Shown: positions 2 to 32,000 of the stretch, piece after piece
Position numbering within the stretch: position 1 is the stretch's first letter
Layout: every line of letters starts with the position of its first letter
Assembly (NCBI GenBank): GCA_963817635.1
Contig: CAWFPR010000005.1
Span: 737,433-769,432 of the forward strand
Length of the DNA stretch: 32,000 nucleotides
Direction of reading: 5' to 3'
Source: an uncultured Acidobacteriota bacterium
GTDB lineage: Bacteria; Acidobacteriota; Vicinamibacteria; Vicinamibacterales; 2-12-FULL-66-21
Program-made: the position numbers and the translations under genes
Notes under the pieces: generated by a model
Seen by the model: only the letters and a program-made list of their open reading frames with translations
Database searches by the model: none
Told to the model about the DNA's origin: nothing

Positions 2-1846
2 CACTGGAGCGCTGGTTTTGGCACCCGTGCGGCCTTCGCCGATCTCGGCGGACGCCAACAGTCCTGGACGGGCGACCGAAAAGAGTTCCTTGGCCGCAAC
101 GGGACGCTTGATCGTCCCGCCGCGCTTGCCAACGGCATGCCCCTCACCAATCGAGTCGGAGGCGGCCTCGATCCTTGCGGCGCCCTCCAGACCTCTCTGG
201 AGCTCGAGCCGAACGGGGTGGCGGAGATCGTGTTCCTCCTTGGCGAGGCCGCGACGAAGGCCGAAGCCGTGTCCCTGGTCACGCGTTATCGAGCGGCCGA
301 TCTCGACGCCGTCTTCAGAGCCGTGACCGAGGCGTGGGACAGCGTCCTGGGGATGGTGCAGGTCAAGACGCCCGATCGCGCGATGGACGTGCTGCTCAAC
401 CGCTGGCTGCTCTACCAGACGCTCGTCTGCCGGGTGTGGGCAAGGGCCGCCTTCTATCAGGCCAGCGGCGCCTACGGCTTCCGCGACCAGCTCCAGGACG
501 TCATGGCGCTCAGCGTGTCGAGACCGCAGATCACGCGGGCGCACCTGCTGCGCGCGGCCGCGCGGCAATTTGTCGAAGGCGACGTGCAGCACTGGTGGCT
601 TCCGCCGCTCGGCCAGGGCGTGCGCACGCGGGTCTCGGACGACCGGCTGTGGCTGCCATATGTCACCGCTCTGTACATCGAGACGACTGGCGACCGGGGC
701 ATCCTCGATGAAATGGTGCCGTTCCTCGACGGCCCGGTCCTCAAAGCCGGCCAGCAGGAATCGTTCTTTCAGCCGACGGCGTCCCTCGAGCAGGGGACGC
801 TGTTCGAGCACTGCGCGCGTGCCCTCGACACGAGCCTTCCGGTCGGCAGCCACGGCCTGCCCCTGATCGGAACCGGTGACTGGAACGACGGCCTGAATCG
901 GGTCGGGGCGGGCGGTAAGGGCGAGAGCATCTGGCTCGGCTGGTTTCTTCATGCCACGCTGTCGGCATTTGCTCCGTTGGCGGATCCTCGCGGCGAGGAC
1001 ACGCGCGGCGCATCCTGGCGGCAACACGCCGTCGCGCTGGCGGCATCCCTCGAGCGAGATGGGTGGGACGGCGGCTGGTACCGGCGAGCCTATTTCGACG
1101 ATGGGGCGCCGCTCGGTGGGCAGGCGAACGCCGAATGTCGAATTGATTCGATCGCGCAGTCGTGGGCGGTGCTCTCCGGTGCCGCACAGGAAGGTCGCGC
1201 CGCGACGGCGATGGCAGCGGCGGACACGCAGCTCGTCCGTCGCGCGGAGGGACTGGCGCTGATCTTCACTCCACCGTTCGATCGCGCGCCGCTCGACGTC
1301 GGATACATTCAGGGCTACCCGCCGGGCATCCGCGAGAACGGGGGCCAATACACCCATGCCGCGCTGTGGTCCGTGATCGCCTTTGCGATGCTCGGTAACG
1401 GAGACAAGGCCGCGGAACTGTTCGAGATGCTCAATCCGATCAACCACGCGCGCACGCGCGCGGATATCCATCGGTACAAGGTCGAACCTTACGTGGCATG
1501 CGCTGATGTGTACGCCGAGCCGAGCCATCTCGGGCGCGGCGGATGGACGTGGTACACCGGCTCGGCCGGATGGATGTATCGGGCGGGGCTCGAGTGGATC
1601 CTCGGATTCCGTCTGCGGGGCACGGCGCTCGTCATCGATCCCTGCATACCGAAGTCGTGGCCCGGCTTCACCATCGCGTTTCAGTACCGCACCGCGCGGT
1701 ACGAGATCGCTGTCGAGAACCCGAATGGCGTCAGCCACGGCGTGTCGCGCATCGCACTCGACGGCACCCCCGTACAAACGCCTCCGGCGCAGATCGAGTT
1801 GTCGGATGACGCAACAGTCCACCAGGTACAGGTGATCCTGGGATGA
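2..1846 (+). CDS. GH94-type glycoside phosphorylase / cyclic beta-1,2-glucan synthase-like catalytic region; 5' end lies outside the window
   Basis: Frame 2 is open from nt 2 (HWSAGFGTRAAFADLGGRQQSWTGDRKEFLGRNG...) and runs into the listed 137..1846 ORF. GH94 hallmark strings are present: YQASGAYGFRDQLQD, GTGDWNDGLNRVG, IRENGGQYTHAALW, YTGSAGWMYR. Stop is TGA 1844-1846. Confidence 0.85.
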   Translation, partial: HWSAGFGTRAAFADLGGRQQSWTGDRKEFLGRNGTLDRPAALANGMPLTNRVGGGLDPCGALQTSLELEPNGVAEIVFLLGEAATKAEAVSLVTRYRAADLDAVFRAVTEAWDSVLGMVQVKTPDRAMDVLLNRWLLYQTLVCRVWARAAFYQASGAYGFRDQLQDVMALSVSRPQITRAHLLRAAARQFVEGDVQHWWLPPLGQGVRTRVSDDRLWLPYVTALYIETTGDRGILDEMVPFLDGPVLKAGQQESFFQPTASLEQGTLFEHCARALDTSLPVGSHGLPLIGTGDWNDGLNRVGAGGKGESIWLGWFLHATLSAFAPLADPRGEDTRGASWRQHAVALAASLERDGWDGGWYRRAYFDDGAPLGGQANAECRIDSIAQSWAVLSGAAQEGRAATAMAAADTQLVRRAEGLALIFTPPFDRAPLDVGYIQGYPPGIRENGGQYTHAALWSVIAFAMLGNGDKAAELFEMLNPINHARTRADIHRYKVEPYVACADVYAEPSHLGRGGWTWYTGSAGWMYRAGLEWILGFRLRGTALVIDPCIPKSWPGFTIAFQYRTARYEIAVENPNGVSHGVSRIALDGTPVQTPPAQIELSDDATVHQVQVILG

Positions 1847-3183: not shown

Positions 3184-5550
3184 ATGGAAAACAGGACGCT
3201 GACACCGGAACTGCTCCACAGGATGGACGCCTACTGGCGTGCCGCCAACTACCTGTCGGTCGGCCAGATCTACCTGTATGACAATCCGCTGTTGAAGCGG
3301 CCGCTCACCCTGGCGGACGTGAAGCACATGCTGCTCGGACACTGGGGCACGACCCCCGGGCAGAACTTCGTCTACGTGCACCTGAACCGGGTCATCAAGA
3401 AGTACGACCTCGACATGATCTACGTCTCGGGCCCGGGACATGGCGGTCCGGCTGTTGTGGGTAACACGTATCTCGAGGGCACCTACAGCGAGATCTATCC
3501 GGACATCAGTCAGGACGAGGCCGGCCTTCGCAAGCTCTTCCTGCAGTTTTCCTTCCCCGGGGGCATTCCCAGCCACGCGTCGCCCGAGTGCCCGGGGTCG
3601 ATTCACGAGGGGGGCGAGCTGGGCTACTCGCTCAGTCATTCGTTCGGAGCGGTGTTCGACAATCCCGATCTCGTCGTCGCCTGCGTCGTCGGCGACGGCG
3701 AGGCGGAAACGGGACCGCTCGCCACGGCGTGGCATTCCAACAAGTTCCTGAATCCGGCCACCGACGGCGCGGTGCTGCCGATCCTGCATCTGAACGGCTA
3801 CAAGATTGCCAACCCCACGATTCTTGCCCGCATCGAGCCCGAGGAACTGGAACAGTTGCTTCGCGGCTACGGGTGGACGCCCATCTTCGTCGAGGGGCAC
3901 GAACCGGCACTCATGCACGAGGCGATGGCCGCGGCGCTCGACCGCGCCGTCGAGCAGATTCAGTCCATCCAGAGAAACGCCCGCGTGCAGGGCGACCTCA
4001 CGCGTCCGCGCTGGCCGATGATCGTCCTGAAGTCACCCAAAGGCTGGACCGGGCCGAAAGTCGTGGACGGGCGACAAATCGAGGGCACGTTCCGGGCGCA
4101 CCAGGTGCCACTCGCCGACCCGGCCACTCATCCCGAACACCTCAAACTGCTGGAGAACTGGCTGAGGAGTTACCGCCCGGAGGAGTTGTTCGACGAATCG
4201 GGGCACCTGAAGCCGGAACTGGCCGAACTGGCTCCGAAGGGCGCTCGACGCATGGGCGCCAATCCCCACGCCAACGGCGGCATCCTGCTTCACGATTTGC
4301 AGTTGCCGGACTTCCGCACCTATGCGGTGGAGGTGCCGGCACCGGGAACGCCCGGCATCGGCGACACCCATGTGCTCGGACCTTTCCTGCGCGATGTCGA
4401 ACGGCTCAACGACGCCCAGCGGAATTTCCGGATCTTCGGCCCCGACGAGTCGCTGTCGAACGGCCTGGCCGCGATCTTCGAAGCGACCAACCGTCAATGG
4501 GACGCCGCGACCGTGGCCAACGACGAGTTTCTCGCGCCGGACGGACGCGTGCTGGACTCGATGCTCAGCGAGCATCAGTGCGAGGGCTGGCTGGAGGGCT
4601 ACCTGCTCACCGGGCGACACGGGCTGTTCAACTGCTACGAGGCGTTCATCCACATCGTCGATTCGATGTTCAACCAGCACGCCAAGTGGCTGGAGGTCAC
4701 CTCGCACCTGCCGTGGCGGCGCAAGATTGCCTCGCTGAACTACCTGCTGGCCTCGCACGTCTGGCGGCAGGATCACAACGGCTTCACCCATCAGGATCCC
4801 GGATTCATCGACGTCGTGATGAACAAGAAGGCCGGAATCGTGCGGGTGTACTTTCCGCCGGACGCCAACTGCCTGCTGTCGGTGATCGACCACTGTCTGC
4901 GCAGCCGGCACTACGTCAACGTAGTGATCGCCGGCAAGCACCCGGCGCCGCAGTGGCTGCCGATGGACGCTGCCGTTGAACACTGCGCGGCGGGCATCGG
5001 CATCTGGCCGTGGGCCAGCAGCGATCAGGGCGCTGAGCCAGACGTCGTCATGGCCTGCTGCGGCGACGTGCCCACACTCGAGACGCTCGCGGCCGTGTCG
5101 ATCATGCGGGAGCACCTGCCCGAGCTGAAGATCCGCGTGGTGAACGTCGTGGACCTGATGAAGCTGCGGCCGACGAGCGAGCACCCGCACGGATTGAGCG
5201 ACGCGAGCTTCGACGCGCTGTTCACCAGGGACAAGCCGGTGATCTTTGCCTTCCACGCCTATCCGTGGCTGATTCACCGTCTGACGTACCGCCGCGCCAA
5301 CCACGACAACCTCCACGTTCGCGGATACAAGGAGGAAGGCACGATTACTACCCCCTTCGACATGACGGTGCTGAATGATCTGGACCGCTTCCACCTGGTG
5401 ATGGACACAATCGATCGGTTGCCGCAGACCGGCGAGAAGGGTCAGCGCCTGAAGCGGCAACTCGCGGAAAAGCTGATCGAGCACAAGCAGTACATCGACA
5501 AGCACGGCCAGGACCTTCCGGAGGTTCGGAACTGGAAGTGGCAGGGATGA
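3184..5550 (+). CDS. xfp: xylulose-5-phosphate/fructose-6-phosphate phosphoketolase
   Basis: Intact 788-aa ORF of typical XFP length. Motifs: [66 protein letters not shown] Shine-Dalgarno-like run lies about 10 nt upstream. Confidence 0.96.
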
Positions 5551-12207: not shown

Positions 12208-13575
12208 TCAGTCCAGCACCTTGATGATCCGATCGACGATGCCGTCGGCGTTCGAATGTTCCCACGCGCGAATGTACTGGATGTCGGTGAGGTAGGGTGG
12301 CAGGGCCATCTCTTCGCGCGCCAGCTTGACGGGAACCACCCTGAGCTTCTTCGCGTCGTGAGCCGCGACGACGCTTCGAGCTTCGTGCCCGCAGTTGCCC
12401 GATGACAGATACGACGGCGACAGCATCAGGACCGCGATGGCGCTGCGATCGAGCTTCGCGAAGATCTCGTCCATCCACGGCCGGCCCGGCTCGATGGAGT
12501 CCCCGCCGTCGCGATAGTCGAACACCGACTGGAAGCGCCGCCGCAGGGCCGTCGCGATCGGCGCCACCAGGGCTTCGTCCTGGCCGCTGTAGCTGAGGAA
12601 GACGGCTTCCTTGCGCATCGCGGCCTCGCGAAAATACGCCCGCGCCTCTTCCACCGCGCCGATGCGCCGGCCTTCCTGGAGGATCCGGTCGAGCCGTTTC
12701 TGGAACCCGTCGACCAGTTGATCTTCGGTCGTCCAGCGCACGATGTCCTTGCTGTACCCTACGTCGTACGCGCCGTAGAGGCTCCCTTCGAGCGGCGGCC
12801 GGCCCGTGTCTGTGCCGGGACCGTCCGATGACTGCCACGAGAGCCGCAGCGTCGGAATGGCCTGCCCGTGCAGGTACGCGCCGATGCCGGTTTCCGCTGC
12901 CGCCGCGCCCACGTCCGTGACGATCCAGTCCGCGGCCTGGAGCCTGCTGACGAGCCGACCGTCCAGTTGCGGCGGCCACGCCAGCCGTTCGACCTCGATG
13001 TTCGAGGCGCCGGCCATGGACTCGAGCCGCCGGACGATATCTTCCTTGTACCCCTGAGGCGGGAGCAGCAACCCGACCGTTCGGCCGGGTAGCTGCGGGC
13101 ACGTCCGCTCGTACTGCATCGAGACGTCCACGTTCTCGCAGAACCGCTTGAACAGGCTCCGGAAAGCCTCGCGATTCGGGGAGCCGCCGCGGCCCGTCAC
13201 TTCCTTGTGATCGAACGGGCACACGAACATCGACGGCGGGAGCGGGATGACCGGACCGTACCGGCGGTCCACGAAGACGATGGCGGGCGTCCGCCCGCGG
13301 ACCGCGAGGTCGACCTCGAGCCGGAAGTACCGGCTCGCTTCGAGCAGCAACTGGCGGGTCGGGCGTTCGTCTCCCTCGCCGTCATACGGATAGATGCCGA
13401 CAAACGCGTCGGTATCCCGAATCATGCGCTCGAGGCGCGTGACGTTGGTGGATCCCGTGCCCCGGTCCACGTCGAACTGCAGCTCGGCGACCTCGCTGAA
13501 CACCTCGTGAAAATAGGTGTTCACCACGGGCGACTGGTAGCGGTGGCTCAGAAAGGCCTTGAGCGTCAAAGACAT
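12208..13575 (-). CDS. multi-module TIR-domain protein: N-terminal TIR/DUF4062-like module, central nucleoside 2-deoxyribosyltransferase-like module, C-terminal canonical TIR
   Basis: The C-terminal residues 324-455, VFLSYSGQDEALV...SIEPGRPWMDEI...AIAVLMLSPSYLSSGNCGHEA, match the TIR_2 pattern and include the conserved Glu (E398, nt 12382-12384). The start is taken at ATG 13575 (MSLTLKAFLSHRY...). The track ORF extends to 13695, but that leader is Arg/Gly-rich junk. Confidence 0.85.
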   Translation of the reverse strand: MSLTLKAFLSHRYQSPVVNTYFHEVFSEVAELQFDVDRGTGSTNVTRLERMIRDTDAFVGIYPYDGEGDERPTRQLLLEASRYFRLEVDLAVRGRTPAIVFVDRRYGPVIPLPPSMFVCPFDHKEVTGRGGSPNREAFRSLFKRFCENVDVSMQYERTCPQLPGRTVGLLLPPQGYKEDIVRRLESMAGASNIEVERLAWPPQLDGRLVSRLQAADWIVTDVGAAAAETGIGAYLHGQAIPTLRLSWQSSDGPGTDTGRPPLEGSLYGAYDVGYSKDIVRWTTEDQLVDGFQKRLDRILQEGRRIGAVEEARAYFREAAMRKEAVFLSYSGQDEALVAPIATALRRRFQSVFDYRDGGDSIEPGRPWMDEIFAKLDRSAIAVLMLSPSYLSSGNCGHEARSVVAAHDAKKLRVVPVKLAREEMALPPYLTDIQYIRAWEHSNADGIVDRIIKVLD

Positions 13576-13659
13576 GTCGGGTGCCCTGCGCCGGGCCTTA
13601 GACGGTAGCACAGGTTCCGGGGCGCCGGGCCGGGCGCCTCGCCCGTCTCGCGAGGAGCA

Positions 13660-13688
13660 TTGACACCCCGCCCCGCCCTTCGTAGCAT
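13660..13688 (+). promoter_or_regulatory. sigma-70-like promoter candidate for the PIG-L deacetylase gene
   Basis: TTGACA (13660-13665), an exact 17-nt spacer, then TAGCAT (13683-13688), about 58 nt upstream of ATG 13747. GGAG at 13737-13740 lies 6 nt before the ATG. Confidence 0.4.
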
Positions 13689-13746
13689 GAGGCACTTTCT
13701 ATCGAGCGCCGACTCGAGTCCACCATAGGCGCTTCCGGAGCACGCA

Positions 13747-20238: not shown

Positions 20239-21393
20239 TCACTCCAGCAACGCCAGAAACACCCCCGCAACGACCGCTGAGCCGACCACGCCGGCGACGT
20301 TGGGCCCCATCGCGGCCATCAACGGGTTGACGCGGCCGGAGGTCTCGGTCGACACAAAGTTCTGCACGACCCGCGCGCTCATTGGCACGGCCGACACGCC
20401 GGCCGCGCCGATGCACGGGTTCACCCGCCAGTCCCTGGGGAGCACGAGGTTCATCAGCTTCGCGAAAGCGATGCCGCCCGCCGTGCTGAAGACGAACGCC
20501 GTCGCGCCGAGCACCAGGATACCGAGCGTCCTCGGCGTGAGAAACCCGTTCCCGTTCATCGTCGCGCCGACCACGAGCCCGAGGAAGATCGTCGCGATGT
20601 TGATGAGCGCTCCTTCCGCCGTCTTCGAGAGGCGGTCGGTGACGCCCGTCTCGCGCAGGAGATTGCCGAACATCAGCAGGCCGACCAGCGGTGCGCAGTC
20701 GGGAACAAGAAGCGACGCGACCATCGCCGTCATGATCGGGAACACGATCACGGCCGCCTGCGAGACGTCTCGCGCCGGGGCAATCGGGATCTCGCGTTCC
20801 GCCTGAGTCGTCAGCAGCCGCATGACCGGAGGCTGGATGATCGGCACGAGGGACATGTAGCTGTAGGCCGCGACCGCGACCGCGCCGAGCAAGTGCGGCG
20901 CGAGCCGGCTCGCCAGGAAGATGGTCGTCGGTCCGTCGGCGCCGCCGATGATGCCGATCGACGCCGCTTCGCGTGCCGTGAAGCCGAACAGCCAGTGCGC
21001 CGACAGTGCGGACACGAGGATTCCGAACTGCGCGGCGGCTCCCAGCACGAACGTGATCGGACGCGCGAGCAGCGGACGGAAATCCGTGAGCGCGCCGACA
21101 CCGAGGAAGATGACAGGAGGCAGGAACTGCGTGGCGATGCCGGCGTCGTAGACGCGCTGGAGAATTCCGGTGTCGTAACCGCTGCCCGGAATCAACGCAC
21201 TGCCCGCGCCGAGGTGCGCGCCAGGGAGATTCGCCAGAATAGCGCCGAAGCCGATCGGGACGAGGAGCAGCGGCTCGTAGTGCTTTCGGATGGCCAGGAA
21301 GATCAATACGCCGCCGACGATGAACATGGAGAAGTTCTGCCACGTCATCGCGACGAGCCCCGAATGGCGGAGGAGGGTAGTGAAGACGTCCAC
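20239..21393 (-). CDS. oadB: sodium ion-translocating decarboxylase, beta subunit
   Basis: Intact 384-aa polytopic membrane protein. FIVGGVLIFLAIRKHYEPLLLVPIGFGAILANLP and GIIGGADGPT are typical of OadB/GcdB/MmdB. GTG start at 21393, 1 nt after the oadA stop, with a GGAGG Shine-Dalgarno. Confidence 0.93.
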   Translation of the reverse strand: MDVFTTLLRHSGLVAMTWQNFSMFIVGGVLIFLAIRKHYEPLLLVPIGFGAILANLPGAHLGAGSALIPGSGYDTGILQRVYDAGIATQFLPPVIFLGVGALTDFRPLLARPITFVLGAAAQFGILVSALSAHWLFGFTAREAASIGIIGGADGPTTIFLASRLAPHLLGAVAVAAYSYMSLVPIIQPPVMRLLTTQAEREIPIAPARDVSQAAVIVFPIMTAMVASLLVPDCAPLVGLLMFGNLLRETGVTDRLSKTAEGALINIATIFLGLVVGATMNGNGFLTPRTLGILVLGATAFVFSTAGGIAFAKLMNLVLPRDWRVNPCIGAAGVSAVPMSARVVQNFVSTETSGRVNPLMAAMGPNVAGVVGSAVVAGVFLALLE

Positions 21394-21394
21394 G

Positions 21395-23252
21395 TCAGCC
21401 TCCGATCGTCAGGATGGGTTGCGCCGCCGTGACGTCCGTGCCGACCGACGCGTGGATCGCGACGACCGTGCCGTCGCGAGGAGCCCTGACGTCGTGCTTG
21501 GCTTTCATGGCTTCGACGCCGGCCACGATCTGCCCCTTCCTGACCGCGTCGCCGACGTGCACGGCGATCTCCACGAGGGCGACTTTCCCCTCGAACGGCG
21601 AATACACGGGTACGTTGCGTTCCGCGGACGGAAGGGCTGACGTCTCGACCACGGCCTGACCGGAGCTCGCCGCCGCCGCCGGCGGATCGATCGTGATGCG
21701 GAACGTGCGTCGATTCCCGTTCTCCTCGACCACGCAGGTCGTCCTCACCGGACCGACGACGCGTGGCTGCGCGTCTGGAACCGGCACCGCGGCCGGTGGC
21801 GTGGCGGCGACCGGGGCCGTGTGCTTCAGGGGCACCGACACTTTCGCCGTGCCGTTCAGAAAACGGATCCCTTCGTTGAGATCCATGTTCTTGCCGGGAA
21901 CGATTGCCGAGGCCACGAGGAAGACGTGCTCGTCGGTGACGGGGAGCTTGCGCTCGCGAAGCGCGTCTTCCGCCAGCTGCAGCGTGTCGGGCGCGGCCTC
22001 GAGCGGATCGCCTGTGAACACGGGCTTCCCGAGCTGCGCTGACGCGAGACGCACGACCTCCGGATCGGGCGGCAGCGGCGGCCGCCCGAAGTAGCCCAGC
22101 ACCGCCTTGCCATACCCGTCGTCGATCTTCTTCCATCGACCGAGCAGCACGTTGTTGAACGCCTGCAGCCAGTATTGCTGGCTGCCCGGCGTGACGCTCG
22201 TCCACGCGCCGCCCGCGCGCACGACGATCGGGAATTCCGCGAGCACGTCGCCGTACTTTCCGAGAATGCCCGCCTCCTTCATCATGTGCACGTTCGGCCC
22301 GATGGCGCCCCCCGGCATCGGGAAGTTGATCACCCGCGCGTCGGCCGTGGTCGTGATCGGGTCGAACGCATACTCCGCCATCCGCTCGTCGAGGATCTTC
22401 TCGAGCTCCGCCATTCTGGCGACGTCGATGTCGAGCCTGTACCCGGTGCCCTTGAGCGCGTGCCACATCGACCTGACGTCCGGCTGCACCGTGCCCGGAC
22501 GCGAGCGGGCGCACCGACAGATCGATGCCGTCCACGCCTCCCTCGAGACCGGCCAGGTAGCACGACACGGCCATCGACGCGGTGTCGTGCGTGTGCTGCC
22601 ACAGCGGGATCTCCGGCGGCAGGATCCGCTTGAGGCCTCTTGCCGTCTCGTAGCAGGTTCGCGGATCGGTGGTCCCCGACGCGTCCTTCATGCACACGCT
22701 GTCGAAATGCGCGCCGCGGTCCAGCAGCGTCTGGATGATCCCGACGTAGAACTCCGCGCTGTGGACCGTCGCGTCGTCGAACGGCAGGCCCATCATCGCG
22801 ATTGCCACCTGGTGATGCAGCCCGGCCTGGACGATCGGCCGGCCGGTCTTCTCCAGGTTGTCCACGTCGTTCATGTAGTCGAAGTTGCGGTCCCACGTGG
22901 CGCCGTGTCTCGCCATCAACCGGGCCTGCAGTTCCAGCGTCTTGAGGGGCTGCGTCGTGAGCGTGACGCCAGAGACCGAGCGCGTGAGGATCTGGAGGTC
23001 GGCCTCCGGGCCGACCACGCGGCGCATCTCGTCCTGGCAGGCGAATGGATCTTCGCCGAGGTAGAAGTACGGCGCCTGGAAGCGGGCTCCGCCGCCGAAC
23101 TCGAAGTGGCGGATGTGCGCCTCCTTCGCCGCGTATTCCATCGCGGGGAGGATGTCGTTCAGGCGTGTCTTCCCTCCGAACGAGCTTTGCAGCCCGTCGC
23201 GGAAGGTCGTGAGCATTACCCGAATCGTCTTGGTCGCAACGGTGGCGAGCAT
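21395..23252 (-). CDS. oadA: oxaloacetate decarboxylase alpha subunit (carboxyltransferase plus biotinyl carrier domain); one frame break
   Basis: N-terminal TIM-barrel carboxyltransferase region (IRVMLTTFRDGLQS, FEFGGGARF, CMKDASG, WQHTHDTASMAV). C-terminal biotinyl domain GVEAMKAKHDVRAPRDG. The thread passes from the 21345..23576 frame to the 21395..22489 frame at about 22490-22495 (PLASG / VQPDVRSMWHAL). ATG 23252 has a GAGGAG Shine-Dalgarno. Confidence 0.9.
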
Positions 23253-23530
23253 GGGATCTCCTCGATCTGGACGACCCGGGCACCAGGGGAGATCACCGAG
23301 ACGGATGAGGCAATTGCCGCTATGAGAACGGGGTCGGGGTCGGGGCCGGCCGGTCGCTCGGCGAGGAGCCGCGTGACAACGCGCATCGCGAGAGCGAGCG
23401 CGGCAAGGAGGATGAATACCGTCAGGAATGCGAGGCCGCAGACAACAAGAAAACTCTGCTGATCCACAGGCGCCTCCGGTCCCAGGTTGTCCGGTAACCC
23501 CAGCATAGCGCCGTCCAGGTCGAATGCCAA
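23216..23530 (-). CDS. oadG: OadG-like gamma subunit (small membrane anchor) of the decarboxylase
   Basis: A single transmembrane helix FLVVCGLAFLTVFILLAALALAMRVV is followed by a Pro/Asp linker and IAAIASSVSVI, the usual OadG layout, and the gene sits directly upstream of oadA. The start is uncertain (TTG 23530 or ATG 23506). The 3' end overlaps oadA by 37 nt. Confidence 0.6.
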   Translation of the reverse strand: MAFDLDGAMLGLPDNLGPEAPVDQQSFLVVCGLAFLTVFILLAALALAMRVVTRLLAERPAGPDPDPVLIAAIASSVSVISPGARVVQIEEIPCSPPLRPRRFG

Positions 23531-23545
23531 ATGGCGCCGCCTCCG

Positions 23546-24502
23546 TCAGAGGGGCGGCAGGCCACGCTCGCGGCAATCCGTCTCGAAGGCTAGCCGCCCC
23601 CGCGCGACGGGCTCCGGCAGACCGTCGATCACGAGTGACAGGTCGTCGCGAATGTCCCGCACCACGCCGGCGGCGAGTGGCGGCGGCCAGTCGGCGAGGA
23701 CGGCTGTCCCGGTCCCGTCGGCGTATACGCGCACCCTGCGGCCGATGACGTTCGACGCGGCGCGATACTCGACCAGCATCGAGGCGAAGCCGCGGTCGAG
23801 CGCCTCGTTACGGCGCCGTTCGAGCGCGGTGAGCGCCTCGCGGAGGAGCACACGAGAATCGACCCCCTCGGCGGCCCCGGCGCGCGGCACGAACGGCGAT
23901 GGCGCGATCGGCGGCGCGGCGCGCACGTTGACGCCGATGCCGGCGAGGAGCAGCTCCGCCCGCGCGCCCGTGATCTCGGTGCGGGTCAGCACGCCGGCGA
24001 GCTTGCCATCCCCGACGTAGAGGTCGTTGACCCACTTGATTCGCGGGGCAACGGCGCCCGCGCTCGCCGACATGATGGCGTCGCGCGCGGCAAGCGTTGG
24101 CACGAGCACGAGGGAACACGCCGTTGCCGCCGGGCAGTTGTCGAGGGGAAGAACCGCCGCGAGATGCAGATTGCCCGCCGCCGACTCCCATGTGCGGCCG
24201 TGAAAGCCGCGCAGGTTCGGGCACGTTCCCGCGACCGCGGCGAGGGCCCCAGGCAGGGTGAATCCGGCGGCGGCCGCCTCGGCGAGCGCGTCGAACTGCG
24301 ATCGGGGCGACCGCTCGACAATCACCAGACGCGACCAGAATGCGATGGCGGGCAGCTCGAACGCGACGGTGTCGTCCGGCGCGCCGTGAATCCGCGACCA
24401 CAACTCCCGGTCGGTCGCCGGCAGCGGTCGAGTGCCGCCGGAGGGGCCCAGGCACGCCACCAGCTCGCGAGCGAAGCGCGACCCGTCGGTGAGGCAGATC
24501 AC
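23546..24502 (-). CDS. birA: biotin--protein ligase (BirA-like, no obvious HTH domain)
   Basis: IKWVNDLYVGDGKLAGVLTRTE...LLAGIGVNV is the KWPNDL catalytic-Lys region, and HGRTWESAAGNLHLA is the biotin loop. The start is taken at GTG 24502, with AGGAG 8 nt upstream. The gene ends 15 nt before oadG. Confidence 0.8.
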   Translation of the reverse strand: MICLTDGSRFARELVACLGPSGGTRPLPATDRELWSRIHGAPDDTVAFELPAIAFWSRLVIVERSPRSQFDALAEAAAAGFTLPGALAAVAGTCPNLRGFHGRTWESAAGNLHLAAVLPLDNCPAATACSLVLVPTLAARDAIMSASAGAVAPRIKWVNDLYVGDGKLAGVLTRTEITGARAELLLAGIGVNVRAAPPIAPSPFVPRAGAAEGVDSRVLLREALTALERRRNEALDRGFASMLVEYRAASNVIGRRVRVYADGTGTAVLADWPPPLAAGVVRDIRDDLSLVIDGLPEPVARGRLAFETDCRERGLPPL

Positions 24503-24624
24503 GAGTCCAGCTCCTGCACCGCACCCTGCAGTGGGTTGCGGCCGTCCGCAAATGGCCGCCGGCCGATGACGGCTGGCGTATACTGATCTTGCATCATTTG
24601 TGGAGCCTTCGCGCAGGTGCCGCA

Positions 24625-26363
24625 ATGCCTCCCGCCGCCGACGGCCCGTCCGGATCCACCATCCCACCGATAGTGCTGGAGTGGGCGCGGGATACCTCGC
24701 CGCTCGACCATGCGCTCGACGTCATCGAGCGCGAGCTGGCCCTCACGCAGGGAAACGTCGAGGCGGTCGCCGCGGCATGCGCCGAGGTAGGGCGTGGTCG
24801 CGCCGCCTGGTCTTTCGCGCCCGTTGCCCAGCGCCTGCGCGCGCTCGCGCACCCCGTGACGACGGGATCCAGCGGGGTCAGGCAGCCGATCGTTGACCTC
24901 CTGTACGACGTGGCGGACGCGAGCGACGATCCCTGGAGCATCCTCGCGGCGCTCCTGGAGTCGCACGACCGCTCGATCTGTGACGGAACGCTCGAACGCC
25001 TGCGACAGCTGGTCGAGGCAGGCCGCCTTCGCATCGACGAACGGCTGCTGACGGGCCTCGGGAGGCTCGTGGAATCCGGCCCGATCTGCTGCGAGAGGGA
25101 TCCGCCCTCGAGCAGATCCGCGGCCTGCTCCGAGGCCCTCCCGGCGGAGCCGCCGCCGACGCCGCGCTGACGGCGATGTACCTCGAATCCGCCGTTCCCC
25201 TGTCGCGCCGCCTCGCGGCGCGCCTCCTGGACCTCTCGTCGTCTCTCCCGCCGCCCACGGTCGCGGTTCGCATCCTGGGCCGCGAACTCGCGGACTACCT
25301 CGAGCCCACTCTCGCGTACACGCGCGCGACGTACCTCGATCTGCTGGATCTTGGCGGCGGCGGAGTCAGCCGGGAGGTTCTTCTCGAGTCGCTGCGTCGC
25401 GCGGATGCCGTCTGTGGCCCCGCGCTGCTGCGGCAGGTCATCAGCGCGCTGGGCTGGCGATCGCTGAACGGCGGCCTCGCCGCGAGTGTCGCTGCCGGCG
25501 TGTCGGTCGGCGGCTCGTTTCCGCTGGTGATGGCGACGAGCGAGGCCGCGCTGGTCGAACGCTGCCCCGACGCCCGGCGGGTGTTCGAGCGGGTCGTGGT
25601 CGTCGCGCATGCGGCGACACCGTGGCTCGGCGATGGGGGGGCATCAGGCGCAGACGCCATCGATCGCTTCCGCAGGCACAACGTCCGCCATGCCGACCTG
25701 CTCGTCGGTCTGCTCGACGTCGCGCCGCTGACGACCGAAAAAGTCCGGCGGATGTTGCGCGGGATGAGCGCCGTCGTTGACGACTTCGAGGCGCTGTTCA
25801 GCGGTGCGCACAAGGACGAATGTGTGGCGGTGGCCGACACGTATCGCGCCATCGAGCAGGAGATCGAGCGCGAGTTGGCCTCGAGCTCGCCCGACCGGCT
25901 GCTGCCGGCGGGCCTGACGCGACTGGTGCAGATGTTCGAGGATCCGCCCGCGCCCTCCGACATGCACTCGCTGCACGGGTGCAAGCGCTACCTGCACCAG
26001 CGGGGCCTGCAGCTCGGCTCGTCTCTCGCGGAATCGGCGCGCACGACCAACCGGACGGTCACGCTCGTCGTCGCGTCGGCAACGGAAGTCCTGCACGTGC
26101 TCAGGGCGGTCGAATACGCCGACTTCGATGCGGGCGAAGGGCAACCGGCGGTCCCCTATGTCGTGCGCGTCGCGGTAGAGGCGTTCGCGCGCCACCTGGT
26201 CCACGGCGAGCGCGCGTTTCCGAAGCTGAGGATCTTCTGCTACGGCAACGAAGTGCACTGCTTTGCCGCGTTCAGGAACCACCCCGTCTTCATCCGGGTG
26301 GACTCTTCGCCGCCGCTGCGGGGCGGCATGATCGACCTCGACTACTTCGGCGTCAGCAAGTGA
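24625..26363 (+). CDS. uncharacterised protein (~580 aa once one frame break is repaired)
   Basis: Track ORFs 24589..25170 (frame 1) and 25176..26363 (frame 3) join sensibly at about 25080 (...GLGRLVESG / PDLLREGSALEQIRGLLRGPPGGAAADAALTAMYLESAVPL...). Frame 3 is open from 24984. I recognise no family motif. The start is taken at ATG 24625. Confidence 0.5.
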
Positions 26364-29300
26364 CGACCTTCGAGTGGCACCCCAACGTCTCGCTCACGTT
26401 CATCGAGCAGATATTCCGCGCGGTGGACTTCGACGTGCAGGTGGACACCACGCGCATCCACGCGCGGTACGACAAGGAGCGCGCGGCCGACCTCAGGGAT
26501 CTCGACGACAAGCTCAGGAGCCTCTTCAACCTCGTGCCGTACCTGATGGACGTGGACTGGGTCATCGGCGATCTCGGGTTGTCGGACGGAGCCCGGCGGG
26601 ACGTGGCTGCCGCGTGGGCGGCGTTCTTCGTCAACTGGGGTGTCGTCCCGATCGCACACGCGCTGACCGCCGATCGACTGGGAATTTTCATGGGCGTCGA
26701 ACACTCACCTGCGGGCGATCGAGAACGGCGATGGAACGGATCGGGCCCTTACCGGGATCGCTTCTCAGTCGAATCGCCGCCTGACTTCTGGGCGTCGCTT
26801 CGGGCGGCGACCCACGAACAGGGTCTGGACGACGTGGTCGCGTTTGACGGAGAGCGTCCCATCGCACAACGCACCCTCGACGCGCACCTGCTGAATCCGC
26901 TGCGACGGGCGGTCGAGCGCAGCCAGGTCGTGGACGGTGGCAACCGGCTGTCGGCGTCGCCCCGGCAGGTGTATGCGCCGCGCCACGAGGCGGAGAACCT
27001 CGCAGGAATCCTGGCCTCCACGGACGAGACGCTCGTGCGATCCGCGCGCCTGGCCGGGCTCGTGGAACGCCTGGAGGGAGGCCGGCGATTCGACCTCACT
27101 GGAACCGTCAACGGGTACAAGGTGCAGCGGGCGGTCATCCCGCTGGCTGGCGGGATCCTCGGTCTCTACGTGCTGTGCGACAGCGGGGGAATTCCGCGGC
27201 TGGGGCTCTTCAGCCACGACGACACGCTGTACGAGCGACGCGATCGGGTCGGGGAGGCATGGAGGCCGAACTGGTCGGTGCACGCCGAGCAACTGGCCGC
27301 GGCTCTGCGGCGCGGCAACTTTGGAGCCGATGGGATCGATCCTGCGGAGCGGGCTGTCGCACCGCTTTTACTCAGGCGCACGTTCGACATGCCGAACGCG
27401 TGGGCTCACTCGGCACCGCTCGCGGGTGACTGCAGTCTGACCGGAGTCAAGGCCTCGCCCGGACGAGCGGTCGGACTGGCGCGGCTCGGCACGCCGGGTC
27501 GCCGGCCTGACGATCTCGACGGCGGGATTCTGGTGACGCCGGCGCTCAGCCCGCTTGAAAACCCGTTCGTGTATCGCTCGGCCGGCGTGGTGTCCACGGG
27601 CGGCGGCGTGCTCAGCCACGCCGGACTGCTGGCGCTCGAGTTCCGCAAGCCGGCCCTGGTGGTGAGCGGCCGATGGGAACGCTCGGCATCGGGTGCCGAG
27701 ACGCTGGTCTACACCTGCGTCGCACATCGCGAGGCGCGCCGGCGCGTCGGGAGATACGCCGTGACCGAGCGGCACCATGCAATCGAGCGCGACGAACGCC
27801 TGCAGGACGGCGATCTCGTCGTGCTGGACGCGGATGAGCGCACGCTGAGTGTCCTCGGTCAGGACCCCGATGCGCTGGCCCTCCACGACGGGCTGCGCCG
27901 GCTGGCCGGCGCCAGCCGGAGCCTCGCCGCCGCGGCAGCTGATACGGAACTGCTCGCGCAACGCGGCCGGATGCTGCGGGCGCGACATCATCTCGAGAAG
28001 CTGCTGGGACGCATCGACGATCCCGTCCTGGGCCGGTTTGCGGCGGTGGAACTGGTCGCCGGCGAAGCAGGCGCCGAACCCACGCTCGGGCAGGCGGACA
28101 AGGTGCGCCTGCTTCGGGCGGTCCTCGCGAACGTCTCCGTCGGCACCGACGTGGCCGGCATGGTGAAGGCGCTGGAGCACGTGCTCGGCCGACGCGCGGC
28201 CGCTCTCCGGGAGCAGGTCGCGCAGCTGGTTCCGTCCTCGGACGACCCGCTCGAGATTCTGACTCTGCGTCTGGCGGCCATCGAAGCGGGCGATCTGCAC
28301 CAGAACGTGTGCGCCCTGGTCGACGCGTGTGTCGTCGCCCCGGCCAGGCCGCCGCAGCCGGCGAGCCTCGATCTCGACACCGTTGCGACGGACCGCCTGC
28401 ACGCGCTTCGTGCACGTCTGCTCGCAGACGTGGAGCGCCTGTCGGCCGGTCCGCCACACCGGCTCCGGCACATTCTGCGCCAGCTTCAGCGTCTGGACGA
28501 CCTGCTCGCGACCGACGCGGACGAACAGGAGGCGATGGCGCGCCTGTGGCCTCGCCTCGTGGACGAAGATGCCGCCACCGTGCAGGCGCTCTCGGCACGG
28601 CGGATCCTGGGCCCGTCGGACGGCGGCGCCGAGCTGTGGCCGCTCGTCGGATCGAAAGCCGCTAACCTCGCGGAGGCGGAGCGTCTCGGCGAAGGCGGGC
28701 TGATCCCGCGGTGGTGTGTGGTGACCGATCGCGCGTTTCGCGAGGTCATCGATCTGCCGGCTCCGCCCGACCAGGCGGCGCCGGCGGGCGGCAGCCTGCG
28801 CGACTGCATCGGCCGGACCCTGCGCGTCACGATCTGTCCGATGCGGAGAAATCCACGGCGATCGCACGCGCCTGGGAGACAGTGCCGCTTCCCGCGGCGC
28901 TCGTTGACGAGGTCGCCGGGGCCTACCGCGCGCTGGCGATCGACGCGCGTGGACCGGGCGAGGAGTACGACCAGCCGTTCGTCGCGGTGCGGTCGTCTGC
29001 CAAAGAAGAGGACCTCGAGGCGACCGCACGCGCCGGCGAGTTCGACACGTTCCTGTTCGTCCGCGGCGTCGATGCGCTGTGCGAGTGCCTCAAGCGTGCC
29101 TGGAGCGGCCTGTGGACCGAACGGGCGATCTACAACCGCGCGGTCCTCGGGGTCACCGGCGAAGTGGGCGGAGGCGTGCTCATCCAGCGAATGGTCGCGG
29201 CGCGCGCCTCTGGCGTGCTGCACACCATCAACCTGGCCGAGGGCCGTCTCCGCGAGATGGTGATCAACGCCGGCCTCGGGCTGGGTGAGGGGATCGTCTC

Positions 29301-29670
29301 CGGCGCGGTGGCGGCCGACCAGGTGATCGTGTCCAAGGCGGAGATCGGGTGTGCCGTCCCCCTGCGCTTCCGGTACATCACAAACGACAAGCGCGAGCGC
29401 ATCGTGTTCGATGCCCGGTTCGGCTCCGGAACGACACGCGTCGCCACGCTCTATCACCAGCGGCTGCGACCGGCGCTGGAATACGTGGAGCTCTGCGAGA
29501 TGGCGGCCGCCGCCGCGCGGCTCGAGTCCGCCTTCCGCCAGCCGCTCGACGTCGAGTTCGCGCTCGAAGGCGGCCGACTCTGGCTGCTGCAGGTTCGTCC
29601 CGTGCCCGCCGCGCTGGCCGCGTGGCGCGAGACGCTCGACAGGCATCCCCTCGTCAGGAGGAACACATGA
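26360..29670 (+). CDS. dikinase-like protein: unknown ~360-aa N-terminal region, PEP-utilizer phosphohistidine swivel domain, ~300-aa helical linker, C-terminal PPDK_N ATP-grasp domain; one frame break
   Basis: Swivel domain GVKASPGRAVGLARLG...ILVTPALSP...VVSTGGGVLSHAGLLALEFRKPALVV, with the His codon at 27617-27619. ATP-grasp domain LVGSKAANLAEAERLG...FVAVRSSAKEEDL...AGEFDTFL...WSGLWTERAIYNR...GGVLIQRMV...VINAGLGLGEGIVSG...LDVEFALEGGRLWLLQVRPV. The frame goes 2->1 at about 28825. GTG 26360 overlaps the stop of the preceding gene (GTGA). Confidence 0.8.
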
Positions 29671-32000
29671 TCCGGCGCGACGAATCACTCGAGTATCACG
29701 GCGGCCACCGCCCGGGAAGGTCGAGCTGCGCGCGACGAAGCCCTGCCTGACCGCGCGAGAGCTTCGCCTCGCGTACCTGCCGGGGGCGACGTTCGCCTGC
29801 GAGGCCATTGTGGCGGAGGCGGAGGCCGTGTTCCGCTACACCGCACGCGGGAATCTCGTCGCGCTCGTGTCGAACGGATCCGCGGTGCCCGGCCTCGGCG
29901 ACATCGGCCCGCGCGCCGCCAAGCCGATGCAGGAAGGACTGGCGCTCCTCCTGAAACGCCTGTCCGACATCGACGTCTTCGATCTCGAGCTCGACGCGAA
30001 CGACCCCGAATCGATTCGTCGAGACGGTCCGAGTCCTCGGGTCGGGGTTCGGCGCGATCGTGCTCAAGGACATCCGTGCGCCGGAGGGACTCGCCATCTA
30101 CGAGCGGCTCGTGCCACTGCTCACCATCCCGGTGTTCCACGAGAACCTGCAGAGCACCGCCGTCGTGGCGGCGGCCGCGCTGTCCAACGCGCTCGACCTG
30201 GTAGACAAGGCGGTGAGCGCCGCGCGCGTCGTGATCTGCGGCGCTGGCACCATCGGCATCGGCTGCGCCCGGCTGCTACGCCAGCTCGGCGTGGGCGGCG
30301 AGCACCTGCTGATCTATGACGTCAACGGCCTCCTTCATGCGGACCGCGACGACCTGACCGTCTACCAGCGGGAATTCGCCATCGCGGACCCCCGCCGCAC
30401 GCTCGCCGAGGGCCTCGGCGGCGCGGACGTGTTCGTCGGCGCCTCGGTCGGCGGAGTGCTGTCGCAGCAGATGATCCGGTCGATGGCGCGTTTCCCGATC
30501 GTGTTCTCCCTCGCGACGCCGGTGCCGGAGATCGCGTACGAGGACGCCAGGGCGAGTCGCCGCGACGCCATCGTCGCCACCGCGCTGTCCCAGATGCCCA
30601 ATGCGATCGTCGATCACCTGTGCGTCCCGTATGTGTTGCGTGGCGCGCTCGACGTGCAGGCGACGCGCATCACCGACGGGATGCTGCTGGCGGCCGCGGG
30701 TGCGCTCGCGGACCTTGCCCGCGAGGAGGTCGTGGACGAGGTGAGCCGCGCCTACGGACGGGAGCGCTTCAGCTTCGGCCCCGAGTACCTGCTCCCGAAG
30801 GCCATCGACCCGCGCATCCTGGTGCGCGAGTCCTCCGCGGTGGCCCGCCAGGCGGTCGCGGAAGGCGTCGCCCGCCGGCCGCTCGAGATGGAGCCGTACC
30901 AGGAGAGCCTGCGCATCCGTCTCGGCACCGGCGGTGAGCTGATGCGCCGCCTGGTCGTGAAGGCCCGTCACGAACGCCCGCGCGTCGTGTTCCCGGAGGG
31001 AGCGACCGAGACCGTGCTGCGCGCGGCCGCGATCCTGGCCGACGAAGGGATCGCGCGCCCCATCCTGCTCGGCGACGACGGAGAGATCCGCGGCTTGGTC
31101 GAGCGGCTGGGGCTCGACGCTGCCGGGCTGGTCGTGGTGATCCGGCCCGCAGCACGCGGAGGGATGCCTACGCGCGAGCAGTACTTCCGGATCCGCCGCC
31201 GCCGCGGCGTCATGCAGTCCACCGCGGTCGATCGGCTGCGCCAGCCTGAGTACTTCGGGGCCATGATGCTGCGCGGGGGCGACGCTGAAATGATGGTCTC
31301 CGGGTTTGCCGCGCACTATGCCGACTCGCTCCGGATGATCCTGGAGGTGTCGGCACGGCGCCGCGCGTGCGCCGGATCTCCAGCCACTACATGGTGCTCC
31401 TGCCGCGAGACGTGTACTTCCTCGCCGACTGCGCGGTCAACATCGAGCCGACGGCCGAAGACCTGGCTGAGATCGCGCTGCTGACGCCGACTGCGTGCGC
31501 ACGCTCGGTCTCGAGCCGCGCGTGGCGATGCTGTCGTTCTCGAACTTCGGCAGCGTCGACCACGCGTTCGCGCGCCGGGTCCGGCGGGCCACCGAGCTGG
31601 TGAAGCAGCGGGCGCCCGACCTCATCGTGGACGGCGAGATGCAGATGGCGACAGCGCTCAATCCACAGGTCCGCCACGAGTACTTCCCGTTCTGCGAGCT
31701 CGGGAACAACGCCAACGTGCTCGTGTTCCCGGATCTCCAGTCGGGCAACCTGGCGATGCAGCTCATCACCCACATGGGAGACGCGGTGGTGGTCGGGCCC
31801 GTGCTGATGGGGACGCGGCTGCCCGCGCACCTGATCCAGTACGGCAGCTCGGTGCAGGATCTGGTCAACCTGACCGCGGCGGGCATCGTCCACGCCGTGG
31901 GGTCCCGAATCGGAAGCATCCGCCGTCGCACGGCCGCTCCTCCTGTCGCCGAACGCGGATCAGCCAGTCAGCGTCGAGCCGTCGTAGAACACGGCAGGGG
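29667..32000 (+). pseudogene. maeB: NADP-dependent malic enzyme, MaeB type (malic enzyme plus PTA-like domain); at least 4 frame breaks; 3' end unresolved
   Basis: EYHGGHRPGKVELRATKPCLTARELRLAYLPGA, VSNGSAVPGLGDIGP, AIVLKDIRAPE, ICGAGTIGIG, then a PTA-like region (VVFPEGATETVLRAA, FLADCAVNIEPTAEDLAEIA, VAMLSFSNFGS, VFPDLQSGNLA). Frames go 3->2 (~29711-29716), 2->3 (~30008), 3->2 (~31350) and 2->1 (~31486). There is no in-frame stop before the window edge. ATG 29667 overlaps the upstream stop (ATGA), and AGGAGG lies 5 nt upstream. Confidence 0.88.

Follow-up and report, generated by a model that had tools for sequence, protein, structure and literature searches.

The 32,000-nucleotide stretch analysed here (hereafter the window), from a contig of an uncultured bacterium of the Acidobacteriota, carries at positions 24625-29670 of its forward strand one gene for a giant dikinase. 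Its product comprises 1,681 aa after repair of three frame breaks, and it is followed directly by a gene for a MaeB-type malic enzyme. According to Pfam and AlphaFold2 (AF2), the protein consists, from N- to C-terminus, of a HEAT-like repeat, an alpha/beta region of ~660 residues, a phosphohistidine swivel, a helical bundle and a PPDK_N-type ATP-grasp. The family to which it belongs combines the known phosphorelay chassis with a new, presumed acceptor module, in an architecture new for bacteria and with a new obligate partner. We tentatively propose that this multidomain phosphohistidine dikinase works together with the downstream-encoded MaeB and that its acceptor is the pyruvate or enolpyruvate made by MaeB, giving phosphoenolpyruvate (PEP).

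Gene structure and frame breaks

The initial annotation had let the gene start at 26360. Alignment of the full-length homologues P0001, P0002, P0004 and P0011 against the window (tblastn) shows coding from ~24625 onwards, collinear over 24625-29670 and distributed over four frame pieces: frame 1 (24625/24694-25083), frame 3 (25080-26360), frame 2 (26360-28822) and again frame 1 (28822-29667). The open reading frame (ORF) flagged at first is the back two-thirds of the gene, and the ORFs 24589-25170 and 25176-26363 encode the N-terminus of the same protein. The complete gene possesses an ATG at 24625, a TGA at 29668-29670 and 1,681 codons once a base is added at each of the three breaks. Each frame transition is a shift of minus one, repaired by a single inserted base, and none of the four pieces contains an in-frame stop. 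Identity to P0001 is 45-69%, piece by piece, in all four, and 58% over the C-terminal 1,102 residues. A search with this repaired 1,102-residue C-terminal protein found 322 relatives, the best 120 of which, as listed, cover 98-100% of the query. Nearly all of these 120 are 1,650-1,730 aa long and extend ~560-600 residues beyond it.

Break 1 (25075-25090, forward strand) lacks one base near 25083. Correction of GGCCCGAT to GGCCCCGAT restores ...VESGP|DLLRE..., where homologues read uninterrupted ...IDSGPDLLRS.... Break 2 (26355-26365, forward strand) lacks one base in AAGTGACG at ~26360, outside any long homopolymer, and mimics a GTGA stop/start overlap of two genes. Homologues span this site unbroken with GGMIDLEYxGVSKYELxxHPNPSL, and the AF2 model forms a single continuous domain across it. 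Break 3 (28818-28830, forward strand) is repaired by one extra G (28822), which turns CTGCGCG into CTGGCGCG and restores ...GRTLARHDLSD..., with ...IRRTLARTDTS... at the same position of P0001. It is the break formerly noted near 28825, real in the sequence and now joined by the two others near 25083 and 26360.

Error-rich assembly is a much more likely cause of these breaks than pseudogene decay. That the breaks are real, and that the window copy is a decaying pseudogene or a set of two or three separate genes, is quite unlikely, even with three of them in 5 kb and with the resemblance of the 26360 site to a natural GTGA overlap away from any long homopolymer. All three are single missing bases, and their repair yields perfect collinearity, with every piece free of in-frame stops and similar to P0001 to the degree given above. 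The same kind of damage affects the adjoining maeB (three or more frame changes) and oadA (one or more) within the same 10 kb, and break 2 would cut midway through one folded domain, the most conserved of the protein. Relatives from the same ENA accession series, which to judge by the record names come from long-read assemblies, have their breaks elsewhere: P0084 (locus L004) in a C6 run, P0121 (locus L088) near residue 1499 and P0245 in many places. Finally, 70 of the 80 GTDB species-representative loci examined possess an uninterrupted dikinase ORF of at least 1,600 aa. A natural division into two genes at 26360 had seemed to be supported by P0084 and the 567-aa ORF preceding it; that split lies ~15 residues upstream, in a C-homopolymer, and is a frameshift artefact, so that the candidate was rejected.

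Taken together, dikinase gene, maeB and oadA show at least seven frame breaks in ~10 kb, as is usual where a long-read assembly of high-GC DNA has not been polished. The short or odd members of the family are likewise frameshift artefacts and no natural variants: P0084 (1,150 aa), preceded by the ORF of 567 aa (L004, 8301-13453); P0121 (1,499 aa), followed by an ORF of 176 aa (L088, 9001-14081); and P0245, a frame-broken translation in which conserved stretches alternate with Arg/Pro-rich junk. Protein lengths given in databases for this family need care. A practical lesson is that, in an error-rich assembly, ORF calls can cut one gene into four and create a spurious "partner gene".

Swivel, helical bundle and ATP-grasp

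AF2 models were calculated for two natural fragments, with ~90 homologues as alignment: P0124 (1,113 aa, N-terminus and swivel; pLDDT 87.1, pTM 0.81) and P0037 (1,125 aa, second half of the protein; pLDDT 86.4, pTM 0.82). Both were submitted as whole chains to Foldseek against PDB, with the top 50 matches listed per model. Motif offsets served to assign residue numbers of the window protein to the domains, and conservation was computed over 109 full-length homologues. All dikinase features are located on the forward strand.

The phosphohistidine swivel (PF00391; 27434-27859, residues ~938-1079) is matched by hmmscan in the piece that begins at 26363, over its residues 387-490 (E 1.5e-8, 34.6 bits, cut-off 23.1). 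Its catalytic His999 is encoded by CAC at 27617-27619, exactly where the initial annotation had placed it, lies in GGGVLSHAGLL and is invariant among the homologues. Foldseek relates the domain to the central domain of PPDK (2fm4, TMt 0.71), to RPH and to the C-domain of pyruvate kinase. The C-terminal PPDK_N-type ATP-grasp (PF01326; 28628-29667, residues ~1336-1681) is interrupted by break 3. Its 28711-29670 piece matches PF01326 with E 9.1e-50; homologues reach 2.7e-59 and, where intact, possess a match of ~330 residues up to the C-terminus. Against the PEP synthase 8a8e in PDB, E is 1e-36 by sequence and 1.5e-65 by profile. Structural matches are RPH 5hv1 (5.1e-18), HpeI 9goj (9.8e-18), PEPS 2ols (1.5e-16) and 5hv6 (TMt 0.84-0.89). 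The motifs GSKAANLAE, VRSSAKEED and LLQVRPV are intact in the window, and the ATP-grasp motifs are invariant across the homologues. The assignment to a dikinase-type protein of the His-swivel/ATP-grasp kind holds, as does the order of glucan, water dikinases, in which the phosphohistidine domain precedes a nucleotide-binding domain at the C-terminus.

Between swivel and ATP-grasp lies a helical-bundle linker (27860-28627, residues ~1080-1335), which corresponds to helices 517-761 of the P0037 model. It is indeed a bundle of long helices, as predicted from the sequence, with a length of ~250 residues instead of the ~300 assumed. Its conservation is low, bar scattered Arg, His and Glu, and the Foldseek matches listed for the whole P0037 chain include none in PDB for this part. 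Pfam, NCBIfam and the PDB-sequence profile search likewise yield no match to it.

A TIM barrel of the PEP-utilizers_C type, the presence of which would contradict the initial interpretation, is missing. In five full-length homologues searched with Pfam, no match to this family reaches E<=1; in the AF2 models, secondary structure in the N-terminal region consists of antiparallel beta meanders with no (beta/alpha)8 pattern; the PDB profile search and the listed Foldseek matches show no barrel either, and the idea of a hidden one was rejected.

N-terminal module

The unassigned stretch upstream of the swivel measures ~940 residues, not the ~360 counted from the truncated gene. It begins with an all-helical HEAT/ARM-like repeat (24625-25451, residues ~1-276), seen as helix pairs in residues 1-255 of the P0124 model and with weak Foldseek matches to PP2A-A, INTS4, AP2 and TOG repeats. 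A mixed alpha/beta region with antiparallel beta meanders follows (25452-27433, residues ~277-937; P0124 256-910). The earlier statement that this N-terminal part belongs to no assignable family stands as far as sequence families are concerned, with the HEAT-like repeat being recognisable in the model. For the alpha/beta region there is no match in Pfam, NCBIfam or the PDB-sequence profile search, and the 50 best PDB matches listed by Foldseek for each whole-chain model include none to it. An origin as a degenerate copy of the dikinase's own ATP-grasp or swivel was rejected at profile level (hhalign probability <=1.2%).

The most conserved core of the alpha/beta region (25938-26776, residues ~439-718; P0001 401-680) straddles break 2. 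Columns that are at least 90% conserved make up 34% of this core, 36% of the ATP-grasp and 26% of the swivel; the HEAT-like region and the helical linker are the least conserved parts with 10% each. Core motifs are HG(L/C)KRYLHQRGL (HGLKRYLHQRGL), FCYGNEVH, NHPxF(L/I)R(I/V)D (NHPAFLRID), GGMIDLxYxGVSK (GGMIDLEYYGVSK), HPNxSL (HPNPSL), TRIHARYDKERA and DxDW, all of them present in the window protein. The core possesses many invariant His, Lys, Arg, Asp and Glu residues and a near-invariant Cys. These invariant charged residues, at a conservation level equal to that of the ATP-grasp, suggest a ligand-binding or catalytic site rather than a passive spacer, and the alpha/beta region is presumed to be the acceptor-binding or catalytic module. 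The lack of a TIM barrel leaves the N-terminal module, or possibly the helical bundle, as the place of the acceptor site.

Comparison with known dikinases

PpsA (EC 2.7.9.2) and PPDK (EC 2.7.9.1) share with the window family the PPDK_N ATP-grasp, which finds its best sequence match here (NF005057/TIGR01418, ~190-200 bits), the PF00391 swivel with invariant His, the presumed relay from ATP over phosphohistidine to an acceptor, and a link to the pyruvate/PEP node. They differ in several respects. In the window family the order is reversed, with the swivel (~938-1079) before the ATP-grasp (~1336-1681); the PEP-utilizers_C barrel is absent, and no PDB-sequence match exists outside ATP-grasp and swivel; ~940 additional N-terminal residues and a helical insert of 250 residues lead to twice the size; and the pairing with MaeB is obligate. 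Homologues score 186-192 bits against TIGR01418 (cut-off 739.75) and 191-202 bits against NF005057 (cut-off 598). With no barrel, a reversed order and 192 versus 740 bits, the family is placed outside PpsA/PPDK.

The alpha-glucan, water dikinases and phosphoglucan, water dikinases (GWD/PWD) of plants and algae resemble the window family in their layout, i.e. N-terminal modules that hold the substrate, phosphohistidine domain and a C-terminal PPDK_N domain, and in their size class (1,200-1,700 aa). In both GWD and the window family the sequence around the catalytic His reads LSH. Unlike GWD/PWD, the window family possesses no CBM45 or CBM20; its N-terminus consists of the HEAT-like repeat and the novel alpha/beta module, and no carbohydrate-binding family is matched in its homologues by Pfam at E<=1. 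It is moreover bacterial, known only from metagenome-assembled genomes (MAGs), and occurs in the context of a malic enzyme rather than of glucan metabolism. Beyond domain order and in want of such carbohydrate-binding modules, it falls outside the definition of GWD/PWD, of which there is no solved structure (PMC12892837).

RPH-type enzymes (RPH, HpeHI, phenylphosphate synthase, PigC/RedH) are small-molecule dikinases without TIM barrel and provide the closest solved ATP-grasp structures among the matches listed. HpeHI, which starts the catabolism of hydroxyphenylethanones, and phenylphosphate synthase illustrate that the superfamily tolerates domain reordering and splitting into subunits (PMC12167813). 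The order in RPH is different: ATP-grasp, helical acceptor domain, swivel. Its rifampin-binding domain matches neither the helical bundle nor the N-terminal module, the listed Foldseek alignments covering only ~350 columns of the ATP-grasp. Homologues score 136-172 bits against NF041857, with a cut-off of 999; lacking a RIF-type acceptor domain and with ~170 versus 999 bits, the window family is not RPH.

VadK of mycobacteria keeps the ATP-grasp-then-swivel order and differs further in being small, without HEAT-like or alpha/beta module and without linkage to MaeB. This PPDK relative (Rv1127c), devoid of a TIM barrel, has been reported to autophosphorylate and to bind metabolic enzymes, and not to make PEP (bioRxiv 10.1101/2025.10.30.685616).

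Distribution of the family

A profile of the N-terminal module found 272 matches at E<=1e-3, 170 of them at E<=1e-30, among 1.84 billion representative proteins. Among the 150 matches listed of these 272, ~100 are 1,400-1,942 aa long and the remainder look like short fragments. Six of seven matches checked with Pfam carry the swivel, five of those also PPDK_N, and the seventh is the frame-broken P0245; judged by this domain content, the module appears specific to the dikinase architecture. Relatives are encoded by 160 of 185,579 GTDB species genomes. Loci were compared in 80 of these 160 genomes, all of them MAGs, from at least ten phyla: Acidobacteriota (Thermoanaerobaculia, Vicinamibacteria, Terriglobia), Desulfobacterota (Syntrophobacter, Desulfobacterales, Desulfatiglandales), Eisenbacteria, Krumholzibacteriota, Ignavibacteria, Melioribacteraceae and other Bacteroidota, Calditrichota, Gemmatimonadota, Zixibacteria, Phycisphaerae, Elusimicrobiota and Anaeromyxobacter.

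Database names of the homologues are generic ("PEP/pyruvate-binding domain-containing protein", "pyruvate, water dikinase", "hypothetical"), the homologues pass no NCBIfam cut-off, and no description of the family or of a MaeB-dikinase pair was found in the literature searched. The family is uncharacterised, and the possibility that the architecture might be a common, already described one is not borne out. As a provisional definition we suggest HEAT-like repeat, alpha/beta core (HGLKRYLHQ, CYGNEVH, RYDKER), swivel, helical bundle and PPDK_N, followed by maeB, all of which are found in the window.

The MaeB partner

The gene downstream of the dikinase (29667-31908, forward strand; tblastn) encodes a MaeB-type hybrid malic enzyme with malic, Malic_M and PTA_PTB domains, recovered in pieces in frames 3, 2, 2 and 1 with at least three frame changes. 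An AGGAGG at 29656-29661 is separated by five nucleotides from the maeB ATG (29667-29669), which overlaps the dikinase TGA (29668-29670) in an ATGA; the whole coupling signal occupies 29656-29670. The partner is a bona fide MaeB: the orthologue in L001 is an end-to-end homologue of the MaeB of Bdellovibrio (6zng, E 1e-195) and E. coli (8jzo, E 1e-180).

A MaeB-type gene is the next gene on the same strand in all six contigs inspected with different dikinase members, and lies directly downstream of the dikinase in 76 of the 80 GTDB loci. The match in the remaining four lies at the very end of the contig or no more than ~160 nt from it, so that all 76 informative loci possess the pair. The maeB start overlaps the dikinase stop in 49 of these 76, by 4 nt in 44 and by 14 nt in five; most others have a gap of less than 50 nt. 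The dikinase gene is thus, as far as can be read from the sequence, probably translationally coupled to maeB in most informative loci. A fusion of both proteins of the Rosetta-stone type, assumed for L078 and L084, was withdrawn: L084 possesses a stop codon and a gap of 17 nt, and L078 the usual 4-nt overlap.

Clustering of all flanking ORFs of the 80 loci identifies MaeB as the only universal neighbour. OadGAB/BirA, an AcrB-type pump and a GAF-sigma54 activator recur near the dikinase only in subsets. So strict a pairing with maeB across phyla, with stop and start codons that overlap in most cases, implies that both proteins either act in consecutive steps or form a physical complex. The initial annotation had looked for substrate recognition partly in the upstream gene product; the ORF in question (25176-26363) is a part of the dikinase itself, and the true partner is encoded downstream.

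The partner MaeB proteins of L001 (14953-17238) and L003 (15106-17376) reach ~660 bits on NCBIfam PRK12861 (NADP-dependent malic enzyme), far short of its cut-off of 1,178, although both are homologous over their full length to the MaeB structures of E. coli and Bdellovibrio. Partner MaeB proteins may represent a distinct MaeB subfamily specialised for the partnership with the dikinase.

Possible reaction and alternative explanations

Homology with other members of the superfamily suggests a phosphorelay from ATP over His999 to an acceptor. The C-terminal ATP-grasp would bind ATP and pass its beta-phosphate to His999, with release of AMP and Pi (or PPi), and the swivel would then deliver this phosphate to another site, made up by the N-terminal alpha/beta core. 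There the acceptor would be a C3 keto-acid from MaeB, pyruvate or its enol form, converted to PEP; docking on MaeB would be the task of the HEAT-like repeat; and the gene pair would constitute a malate-to-PEP module with a non-TIM-barrel acceptor domain. A physical complex of dikinase and MaeB is suggested by the gene pairing, and the acceptor, the most conjectural element of the proposal, is put forward from synteny and chemistry. Dikinase chemistry, which takes ATP to AMP, typically serves phosphorylations that are energetically hard, as those of pyruvate to PEP, of phenols and of glucan hydroxyls. Pyruvate is favoured as acceptor by this suitability and by the recurring neighbours MaeB and Oad, both of which make pyruvate from C4 acids. 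In a bolder version, which we consider improbable, the swivelling phosphohistidine of a stoichiometric dikinase-MaeB complex would phosphorylate in place the enolpyruvate or pyruvate that arises from malate by oxidative decarboxylation, on an acceptor fold not seen before, and would form a malate-to-PEP machine independent of PEPCK and PpsA.

Several points weigh against PEP formation. To our knowledge, all PEP-forming or PEP-using members of the superfamily employ the PEP-utilizers_C barrel, which is absent here. Recruitment of an ordinary ppsA would be simpler, and such an elaborate novel module argues for a different acceptor. HEAT-like repeats and a GWD-like layout may fit a macromolecular target, for example MaeB itself, at least as well. 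Synteny demonstrates a functional link as such.

An alternative is a regulatory protein kinase, which seems possible to us, if rather unlikely. The dikinase would autophosphorylate on His999, and the phosphate would be transferred to a residue of MaeB or held as a signal. The N-terminal module would sense a ligand and the malic enzyme be switched accordingly, with MaeB gripped by the HEAT-like repeat. Such a role would be in line with the obligate pairing with a single enzyme gene, with HEAT/ARM-like repeats as classic protein-binding scaffolds, with the missing barrel and with the GWD layout, in which N-terminal modules are known to hold a macromolecule. VadK/Rv1127c offers a precedent of a PPDK-derived autophosphorylating kinase that binds metabolic enzymes (bioRxiv 10.1101/2025.10.30.685616). 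However, the overlapping stop and start codons suggest near-equimolar amounts of a 1,700-residue protein and an abundant enzyme, which is costly for a catalytic regulator. Moreover, phosphorylation of Ser, Thr or His does not need two phosphoanhydride bonds to be spent, and the dense invariant charged residues of the core look more like a small-molecule active site. No phosphorylation site peculiar to the partner MaeB emerged, no search having been aimed at one.

It is less probable still that the acceptor is unrelated to the chemistry of MaeB (a polymer, cofactor, xenobiotic or antibiotic), in line with the broad proposal of the initial annotation, the linkage being mere co-regulation. The N-terminal module gives no clue to specificity, and the acceptors in the superfamily are diverse, comprising rifampin, phenols, glucans and prodigiosin precursors (NCBIfam names; PMC12167813). 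Against this stands an adjacency in 76 of 76 loci, over at least ten phyla and with overlapping stop and start codons, far tighter than usual for co-regulation. Among the flanking ORFs of the 80 loci, moreover, no glycan, antibiotic-resistance or aromatic-catabolism genes recur, so that the genomic context gives no pointer to the glucans or antibiotics named in the initial annotation as potential acceptors. PADLOC detects no defence match, which leaves a role in anti-phage defence unsupported.

Very unlikely is an ATP-driven carboxylation in the reverse direction, in which the dikinase would activate pyruvate as enol phosphate and MaeB would carboxylate and reduce it to malate. It would profit from the same synteny, from the analogy to phenylphosphate synthase/carboxylase and HpeHI, where phosphorylation by a dikinase precedes carboxylation, from the presence of HpeI and RPH-type small-molecule dikinases among the nearest solved ATP-grasps listed, and from the biotin-dependent carboxyl-transfer system (OadGAB/BirA) near the pair in some genomes; yet it is purely analogical, malic enzymes using PEP are not known, the Oad cluster adjoins the pair in only ~10% of loci, and no carboxylase-specific component is universally linked.

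Neighbouring genes

Divergently from the dikinase gene, the reverse strand of the window carries an OadGAB and BirA cluster (20242-24514; tblastn), composed of OadB (20242-21393), OadA (21398-23252, with a frame break at ~22495), an OadG-like protein (23258-23467) and a BirA-like biotin ligase (23558 to ~24514). This cluster adjoins the dikinase-MaeB pair in the window, in seven of the 80 GTDB loci and in L003. The product of the OadGAB oxaloacetate decarboxylase is pyruvate.

A GAF-domain sigma54-dependent activator is located just upstream of the pair in ~5 loci of Desulfobacterota (L005, 7925-9508; L054, 5655-7454, Syntrophobacter-type), which hints at sigma54 control of the pair in this lineage.

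Three further genes of the window were recorded. An ORF of 495 aa (12208-13695, reverse strand) possesses a C-terminal TIR_2 domain (PF13676, E 1.2e-20) after ~360 N-terminal residues without Pfam match, and is a candidate for a bacterial TIR NADase or a protein of defence type. The ORF at 137-1846 (forward strand) contains the catalytic domain of a GH94-family phosphorylase (PF17167, E 2e-123); the supersandwich domain upstream of it is matched in its last ~35 positions only, and the true N-terminus may precede the ORF or the window. A complete phosphoketolase (XFP_N/XFP/XFP_C) is located at 3184-5550 (forward strand). Phosphorylase and phosphoketolase are sugar-phosphorolysis genes and bear no relation to the dikinase.

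Implications

The PEP-pyruvate-oxaloacetate node is among the best-studied metabolic junctions. A review of 2020 counted at least 11 enzyme types there, and a search of its text for the relevant terms met no mention of MaeB and nothing like a giant dikinase (PMC8100219). With MaeB downstream in all 76 informative loci, the substrate is now to be looked for at the malate/pyruvate/PEP node or in MaeB itself. The giant dikinase would open a novel path to PEP or else regulate malic enzyme in a novel way. If the bolder version given above is true, the malate-to-PEP complex would represent a twelfth enzyme type at this node, and such a machine would occur widely among uncultured bacteria, Acidobacteriota, Desulfobacterota, Ignavibacteria and Eisenbacteria among them. 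Either outcome would alter flux models for many uncultured bacteria of soil, sediment and groundwater, and would extend the known plasticity of the swivelling-histidine dikinase superfamily.

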